This document shows positions 1,023-1,778 of a stretch of 2,018 nucleotides of DNA, piece by piece (position 1 is the stretch's first letter; each line of letters starts with the position of its first letter). The notes under the pieces are model-generated. The model made no database searches, had not been told where the DNA came from, and saw only the letters and a list, made by a program, of their open reading frames with translations. Location: the NCBI GenBank assembly GCA_000004985.1, contig GG739296.1. One strand, written 5' to 3'. The position numbers and the translations under genes were made by a program. Source of the DNA: Naegleria gruberi (lineage: Eukaryota).

Positions 1023-1778
1023 TTAGTATTTTAATTCTTCACGTTTCGAATACATTATATCTGATCTCATAATATACTTCACACCCTTAAAGACCTTCTC
1101 TCCACCATGCAACATGTGTTTATCATTCTGAAGGAATATCAATGCATTTCCAGCTGGTTCAGTAACCTTTCTAGTCATCAACTCCATTCGAGAATCATAA
1201 AATATCGTCGATCCACCCTCAAACTCTCCATCCAATTGAGAATTCAGATAAATAATGAGAGTGAGATAGCTCTTAGTTTTGTTCTTGTGATCCTCAAAGC
1301 TGCCATCGACGTGTTTGTTGAAATAATGCCCTGGTTTATACTTGCATAATCTCCAACGAGGATTTATACTTGCCAAATGCAATGTTCTGCCATCCTTACT
1401 CAATGTTTGTGGCAGATGTTGCTTTATACGATTCCAGACTATTTCAGTAAATTTTGGATCGTCACTCATTAAACGATCATTAAATCGATCATTATAGGCA
1501 TAGCAAAACTTATCCGCATCCTCATATCCCATCTTTTCACTCAACTCTATCATTAATTTACATTCGTCTTTTGAAAGCACTTGATCCAATACGAAACATG
1601 GTTTCTTTACTTGTTCAACCTCCTCAACTGTTTTTCTTGAAACTCGTGGACACCAATTATTCGAATCCATCAGAAGCATATTTTTTTGTATTTGTGAAAT
1701 ATTCTCATCATTAGAATCATTCAGTATTGGTGCATAGACCATCTCGTTCCATCCTGTAGGAGCAGAAAGTAAAGTCAT
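1023..1778 (-). CDS. Prolyl 4-hydroxylase-type 2-oxoglutarate/Fe(II)-dependent dioxygenase (P4Hc / 2OG-FeII_Oxy_3-like), 251 aa, soluble, with no signal peptide.
   Basis: A complete ORF runs from ATG (+ strand 'cat' at 1776-1778) to TAA (+ strand 'tta' at 1023-1025). The P4Hc N-terminal block is PCFVLDQVLSKDECKLMIELS (consensus P-x-[ILV]..FLS.eEC..LI.l). The iron-binding His-x-Asp is KPGHYFNKH156-V-D158 (codons at 1311-1313 and 1305-1307), followed by the hydrophobic strand YLTLIIYLNSQLDGEFEGGST. The second iron His is H224 in ALIFLQNDKHMLHGGE (codon 1107-1109), 68 residues after the first His. The 2OG C5-carboxylate-binding basic residue is K234 in G-V-K-Y (codon 1077-1079), in the G-x-[RK]-Y position. 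That residue is Lys in collagen, plant and viral P4Hs and Arg in the HIF prolyl hydroxylases. Residues 1-57 (MTLLSAPTGWNEMVYAPILNDSNDENISQIQKNM...) form an N-terminal extension with no hydrophobic leader. Confidence 0.85.
   Translation of the reverse strand: MTLLSAPTGWNEMVYAPILNDSNDENISQIQKNMLLMDSNNWCPRVSRKTVEEVEQVKKPCFVLDQVLSKDECKLMIELSEKMGYEDADKFCYAYNDRFNDRLMSDDPKFTEIVWNRIKQHLPQTLSKDGRTLHLASINPRWRLCKYKPGHYFNKHVDGSFEDHKNKTKSYLTLIIYLNSQLDGEFEGGSTIFYDSRMELMTRKVTEPAGNALIFLQNDKHMLHGGEKVFKGVKYIMRSDIMYSKREELKY

Follow-up and report, generated by a model that had tools for sequence, protein, structure and literature searches.

The 2,018-bp window analysed here, which is the entire length of one Naegleria gruberi scaffold, raises the question of what kind of 2OG oxygenase the reading frame on its minus strand encodes, and whether the gene belongs to the amoeba or to a virus. 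The reading frame is the following:

1023..1778, minus strand: complete intron-less CDS, 251 aa plus stop, running from ATG to TAA in the ORF list

An exact-sequence look-up showed that its protein is identical to N. gruberi NAEGRDRAFT_76964 (XP_002668126.1; UniProt D2W6C1), which is carried in GenBank as a 'predicted protein'. We propose that this N. gruberi nuclear gene probably encodes a catalytically competent, soluble Fe(II)/2OG oxygenase of a prolyl-hydroxylase-like, Lys-type branch, which most likely resides in the cytosol or nucleus and hydroxylates an intracellular protein, with proline as the likeliest target. The enzymatic activity, the protein substrate, the proline target and the cytosolic location are those that we infer for NAEGRDRAFT_76964.

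Orthologues of NAEGRDRAFT_76964 were found in three other heterolobosean species, being full-length in Naegleria fowleri, N. lovaniensis and Willaertia. The CDS is colinear with its orthologues and, in the tree, sits within a monophyletic heterolobosean clade. The copy in a second strain is 98% identical, with nine synonymous and seven non-synonymous codon differences, and the ORF is intact in both strains compared. Five of the seven non-synonymous differences fall within aa 1-50, and the domain at aa 60-248 carries seven synonymous changes against a single non-synonymous one, so that this domain is, judging from the two coding sequences, under purifying selection. The ORF is a real, intact and conserved gene. 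The preliminary description had asked whether the protein groups with host-type or virus-type enzymes; since it is identical to XP_002668126.1 it is an amoeba gene showing no sign of viral origin, and its place in the heterolobosean clade settles the matter in favour of the host. A viral origin of the ORF was considered and rejected, as a scan of IMG/VR viral contigs with heterolobosean sequence patterns found no relative and the window is itself an N. gruberi scaffold. On a 396-kb N. gruberi scaffold lies an allelic copy, NAEGRDRAFT_68945, for which the annotation gives a truncated model of 181 aa.

The catalytic part of the protein was compared with the small P4Hs of Bacillus anthracis (BaP4H) and PBCV-1 (vCPH), and the following features were located:

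1035..1607, minus strand: P4H-like double-stranded beta-helix oxygenase domain, aa 58-248
1068..1349, minus strand: match to Pfam PF13640 (2OG-FeII_Oxy_3), aa 144-237, 41.2 bits against a cut-off of 27, E=3.4e-10
1305..1313, minus strand: H156-V-D158, proposed Fe(II) ligands (HxD), aligned on the HxD of BaP4H and vCPH; H and D in 269/269 non-gap homologues
1107..1109, minus strand: H224, proposed distal Fe(II) ligand, aligned on BaP4H H193; H in 266/266 homologues
1077..1079, minus strand: K234, proposed 2OG C5 carboxylate binder at H224+10, aligned on BaP4H K203 and vCPH K217; K in 266/266 homologues

[quoted passage not shown] The earlier picture of a compact, single-domain 2OG/Fe(II) oxygenase without a signal peptide is supported. 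On the reverse complement, the codons at 1311-1313 (gtg), 1305-1307 (atc), 1107-1109 (atg) and 1077-1079 (ctt) specify His, Asp, His and Lys, and translation places H156, D158, H224 and K234, including the Lys at the 2OG position, exactly where they had been proposed. In HMMER alignments, these four residues coincide with H127, D129, H193 and K203 of BaP4H (3itq numbering) and with H138, D140, H207 and K217 of vCPH (5c5t), which we take to be the metal and 2OG ligands of those enzymes. The two His are separated by 68 residues in NAEGRDRAFT_76964, 66 in BaP4H and 69 in vCPH, and the H-to-K spacing is 10 in all three.

Invariance of H, D, H and K in about 270 homologues speaks for a functional enzyme and against a pseudo-enzyme. 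One might suspect a non-catalytic P4H-like binding module, like the N-terminal domain of vaccinia C16/C10, or else an ORF that is spurious or in decay, given that the window is a 2-kb unplaced scaffold, that the allelic copy has a truncated annotation and that C16 is among the fold matches. Since the catalytic residues are invariant, both strains have an intact ORF whose domain differs mainly by synonymous changes, and three heteroloboseans have full-length orthologues, we consider this reading scarcely credible. In the mechanism that we propose for a working enzyme, H156, D158 and H224 would bind Fe(II), 2OG would chelate the iron with its C5 carboxylate held by K234, and Y147 and T191, corresponding to the conserved Tyr and the Thr of GG-x-T in P4Hs, would probably assist 2OG binding. 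O2-dependent decarboxylation of 2OG would then yield Fe(IV)=O, and this would hydroxylate a residue, most likely a proline, of an intracellular protein.

The position of NAEGRDRAFT_76964 among 2OG oxygenases was examined with a family profile and a fold search. Among solved structures, BaP4H, vCPH and CrP4H-1, all small P4Hs, are the closest in sequence, with E-values of 3e-14, 4e-10 and 5e-6 in the search of the family profile against PDB. P3H1 (2e-5), PPHD (2e-4) and P4H-TM (3e-4) followed, and PHD2 was not among the matches listed. In the fold search, vCPH and CrP4H-1 ranked first and BaP4H twelfth, and identity to solved P4Hs is 19-28%. A likeness to small soluble P4Hs, as previously described, is thereby borne out. 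No best HMM or fold match lay in the AlkB, JmjC or PhyH clades; as the ligands align with those of P4Hs and no AlkB, JmjC or PhyH model wins, neither of the outcomes that were to refute the preliminary description was observed.

Arg at the 2OG C5 position characterises HIF-PHD/EGLN and PhyA enzymes, and NAEGRDRAFT_76964 and all 266 aligned homologues have Lys there. HIF-type PHDs also scored clearly below the small P4Hs, in agreement with the separation from EGLN/PHD enzymes made beforehand. On this evidence, an oxygen-sensing prolyl hydroxylase of the PHD/PhyA type, for example the Skp1 hydroxylase of Dictyostelium and Toxoplasma, is very improbable: the profile gave an E-value of only 1e-3 to 3e-3 to Dictyostelium PhyA, against 3e-14 to BaP4H, and TgPHYb and PHYa belong to a PHD-related clade described separately (PMC6437050). 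TgPHYb had been considered as a characterised relative and was rejected as PHD-type and related to PHYa.

A further reading has the protein acting on a small molecule, a free amino acid or a nucleoside, in the manner of PiuC/YbiX, PolD or FlmC, or hydroxylating lysyl instead of prolyl residues. Some relatives are fused to DOPA-dioxygenase or HIT domains, which could indicate small-molecule chemistry, but the commonest fusion partners in the family are WD40 protein-interaction propellers. The protein scored 25.1 bits against the PKHD-type model (PiuC/YbiX; NCBIfam NF003974), for which the cut-off is 143, and a second NCBIfam comparison was likewise far under its cut-off (22 versus 240 bits). 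In addition, the profile ranks P4Hs orders of magnitude above PiuC-like proteins (3e-14 versus 5e-4), and the 2OG site of PiuC, OGFOD1 and LH3 has Arg where this protein has Lys. We therefore regard a small-molecule or lysyl hydroxylase as unlikely, although it is the strongest of the competing readings, and retain an intracellular-protein prolyl hydroxylase as the preferred one.

At E<1e-30, the family to which NAEGRDRAFT_76964 belongs counts 612 representatives; they come from protists and Myxococcota and include at least one sequence that is probably from a giant virus. Members are 30-58% identical to NAEGRDRAFT_76964, examples being Balamuthia KAL6066982.1, Willaertia KAL9645568.1, N. gruberi NAEGRDRAFT_71526 and Yasminevirus A0A5K0U8P1. 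The Yasminevirus model matches NAEGRDRAFT_76964 with TM 0.70/0.76 at 29% identity, and this structural match suggests that the family probably occurs in a giant virus as well. A signature comprising Y-R-x-N-x-R, N-x-x-[WF]-R-x-x-K-Y, H-x-D, Y-[LM]-N, GG-x-T-x-F, H-x-G and K-Y-x-x-R-x-D-x-x-Y is shared across the family. Three of its elements were located as follows:

1473..1487, minus strand: R98-F-N-D-R102, signature Y-R-x-N-x-R; R98 in 267/270 and R102 in 268/270 homologues, with R98 aligned on the Arg of BaP4H 'IRTSSG'
1338..1364, minus strand: N139-P-R-W-R143-L-C-K-Y147, signature N-x-x-[WF]-R-x-x-K-Y, before the HxD strand; N139 in 269/270, R143 in 267/270 and Y147 in 269/270 homologues
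1059..1067, minus strand: R238-S-D240 in the last beta-strand, within K-Y-x-x-R-x-D-x-x-Y; R in 265/266 and D in 254/266 homologues

R238 and D240 are not common to the three aligned small P4Hs, as far as those alignments reach, and BaP4H has KWIA there. Presumably, R98, R102, N139, R143, R238 and D240 form a substrate pocket unlike that of collagen/HRGP-type P4Hs. These residues bear on the reading that places NAEGRDRAFT_76964 among the canonical collagen/HRGP-type prolyl 4-hydroxylases, together with PBCV-1 A085R, Chlamydomonas P4H-1 and the plant P4Hs, as an enzyme for Pro-rich repeats of secreted or cell-surface proteins. Such enzymes are its top sequence and fold matches, it shares their Lys at the 2OG site, and its 'CKYKPGHYF..HVD' is like the 'ARYKPGQYY..HYD' of vCPH. 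However, canonical P4Hs score only 1e-5 to 1e-14, and E-values to the algal and viral enzymes are a modest 1e-3 to 1e-10, whereas the 612 representatives form a large separate cluster with near-invariant residues of their own. A signal peptide or membrane anchor is, moreover, absent here and in nearly all of the family. By sequence, NAEGRDRAFT_76964 is not a close relative of canonical P4Hs, and we judge membership in that class distinctly improbable.

We regard the family as probably distinct and ancient, and as uncharacterised to date. Not one of the top 120 database matches bears an informative name, and neither database names nor the literature yielded a characterised member; a literature search on the locus tags and accessions of NAEGRDRAFT_76964, of its paralogue and orthologues and of the neighbouring gene turned up no publication that names them. 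A metagenome scan for relatives returned two distant loci only, and the bacterial gene context of one WD40-fused relative revealed no informative operon. Many relatives carry WD40 propellers on the N- or C-terminal side, F-box-like, DOPA-dioxygenase or HIT domains, or a helical C-terminal tail of about 45 aa, all of which are absent from NAEGRDRAFT_76964. Since WD40 and F-box-like domains are protein-interaction modules, such fusions fit a protein substrate.

The remaining part of the protein precedes the oxygenase domain:

1608..1778, minus strand: N-terminal region, aa 1-57, with W10, the heterolobosean motif W-x4-Y15-x-P17-[ILV]-[LF] and a predicted helix at aa 25-39

This region had been described as acidic, rich in N, D and S, and without a counterpart in the minimal domain. 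Its composition (N=7, S=5, E=5, D=3; net charge -4) roughly agrees with the first part of that description. The second part holds for only some of the region: W10 aligns with a family-wide N-terminal motif, M-x-E-I-x-V-x-T-x-W-x-x-L-L, in which W is present in 103 of 108 sequences, and family profiles place the pre-domain segment on residues 9-37 of BaP4H, whereas an insert at roughly aa 15-20 and 26-50 is specific to Heterolobosea. This insert and the Y-x-P-[ILV]-[LF] motif set the heterolobosean clade apart from the wider family. Model confidence across aa 1-57 is mostly low to moderate, with pLDDT by block of 40, 70, 64, 68, 79 and 65. The W-x4-Y-x-P-[ILV]-[LF] motif might act as a pseudo-substrate within the molecule, or else serve for docking. 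No hydrophobic segment was found in the N-terminus (maximum Kyte-Doolittle 15-mer, 0.27), only one or two of 111 family members have such a segment, and NAEGRDRAFT_76964 has neither a signal peptide nor a membrane anchor for the secretory pathway, in contrast to the eukaryotic and viral enzymes among the Lys-type small P4Hs, a group that comprises BaP4H, vCPH, CrP4H-1, plant P4Hs and the C-P4H catalytic domain. The absence of a hydrophobic N-terminus is the single feature that points to a cytosolic location.

Eukaryotes link signalling to the availability of O2 chiefly through the hydroxylation of proteins by 2OG oxygenases. To our knowledge, PhyA/Skp1 and OGFOD1/Tpa1 are the only understood systems outside animals. 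As a tentative extension of our proposal, which we hold with much less confidence than the proposal itself, NAEGRDRAFT_76964 may represent an ancient, hitherto overlooked family of P4H-like protein hydroxylases of the Lys type that work in the cytosol, present in many protist lineages, Myxococcota and probably a giant virus but apparently not in standard model organisms. Such a family might use its own pocket to target a conserved intracellular protein; the WD40 and F-box-like fusions might tie it to O2-dependent signalling, through ubiquitin ligases or otherwise, that runs alongside PHD/PhyA without depending on it, and the heterolobosean motif might serve as the pseudo-substrate or docking element suggested above. 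If this is true, protists would have a second widespread cytosolic P4H-like family, a candidate to carry out some unexplored modification of proteins that depends on oxygen or metabolites, and Naegleria, which includes the pathogen Naegleria fowleri, is among the genera that carry it. As matters stand, a hypothetical protein that was in the databases before has received its correct domain assignment; not surprising in itself, this finding has its value as a pointer to an uncharacterised family.

Among named systems, BaP4H (PDB 3itq, 5hv0, 5iax, 5v7y) is the best solved-structure sequence match, with E=5.7e-6 for the single sequence and the far lower value given above for the family profile. 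Like NAEGRDRAFT_76964, this protein of about 216 aa is soluble, has a single domain and lacks a signal peptide; HxD, H and K correspond one to one, and the alignment extends into the N-terminal pre-domain segment. PBCV-1 vCPH (A085R; PDB 5c5t) belongs to a different sequence family. It has a membrane anchor at its N-terminus, and its substrates are Pro-rich repeats, whereas NAEGRDRAFT_76964 lacks a hydrophobic segment. To Chlamydomonas reinhardtii P4H-1 (PDB 2jig, 2jij, 3gze) and plant-type P4Hs, identity is 15-21% over a partial alignment of the domain, and the algal and plant P4Hs work in the secretory pathway on (Ser-Pro)n motifs of HRGP. HIF-type PHD/EGLN enzymes and protist PhyA (PDB 6t8m, 2y33) show much weaker sequence similarity to the family, with E about 1e-3, and hold the 2OG C5 carboxylate with Arg, in contrast to the invariant Lys of the NAEGRDRAFT_76964 family.

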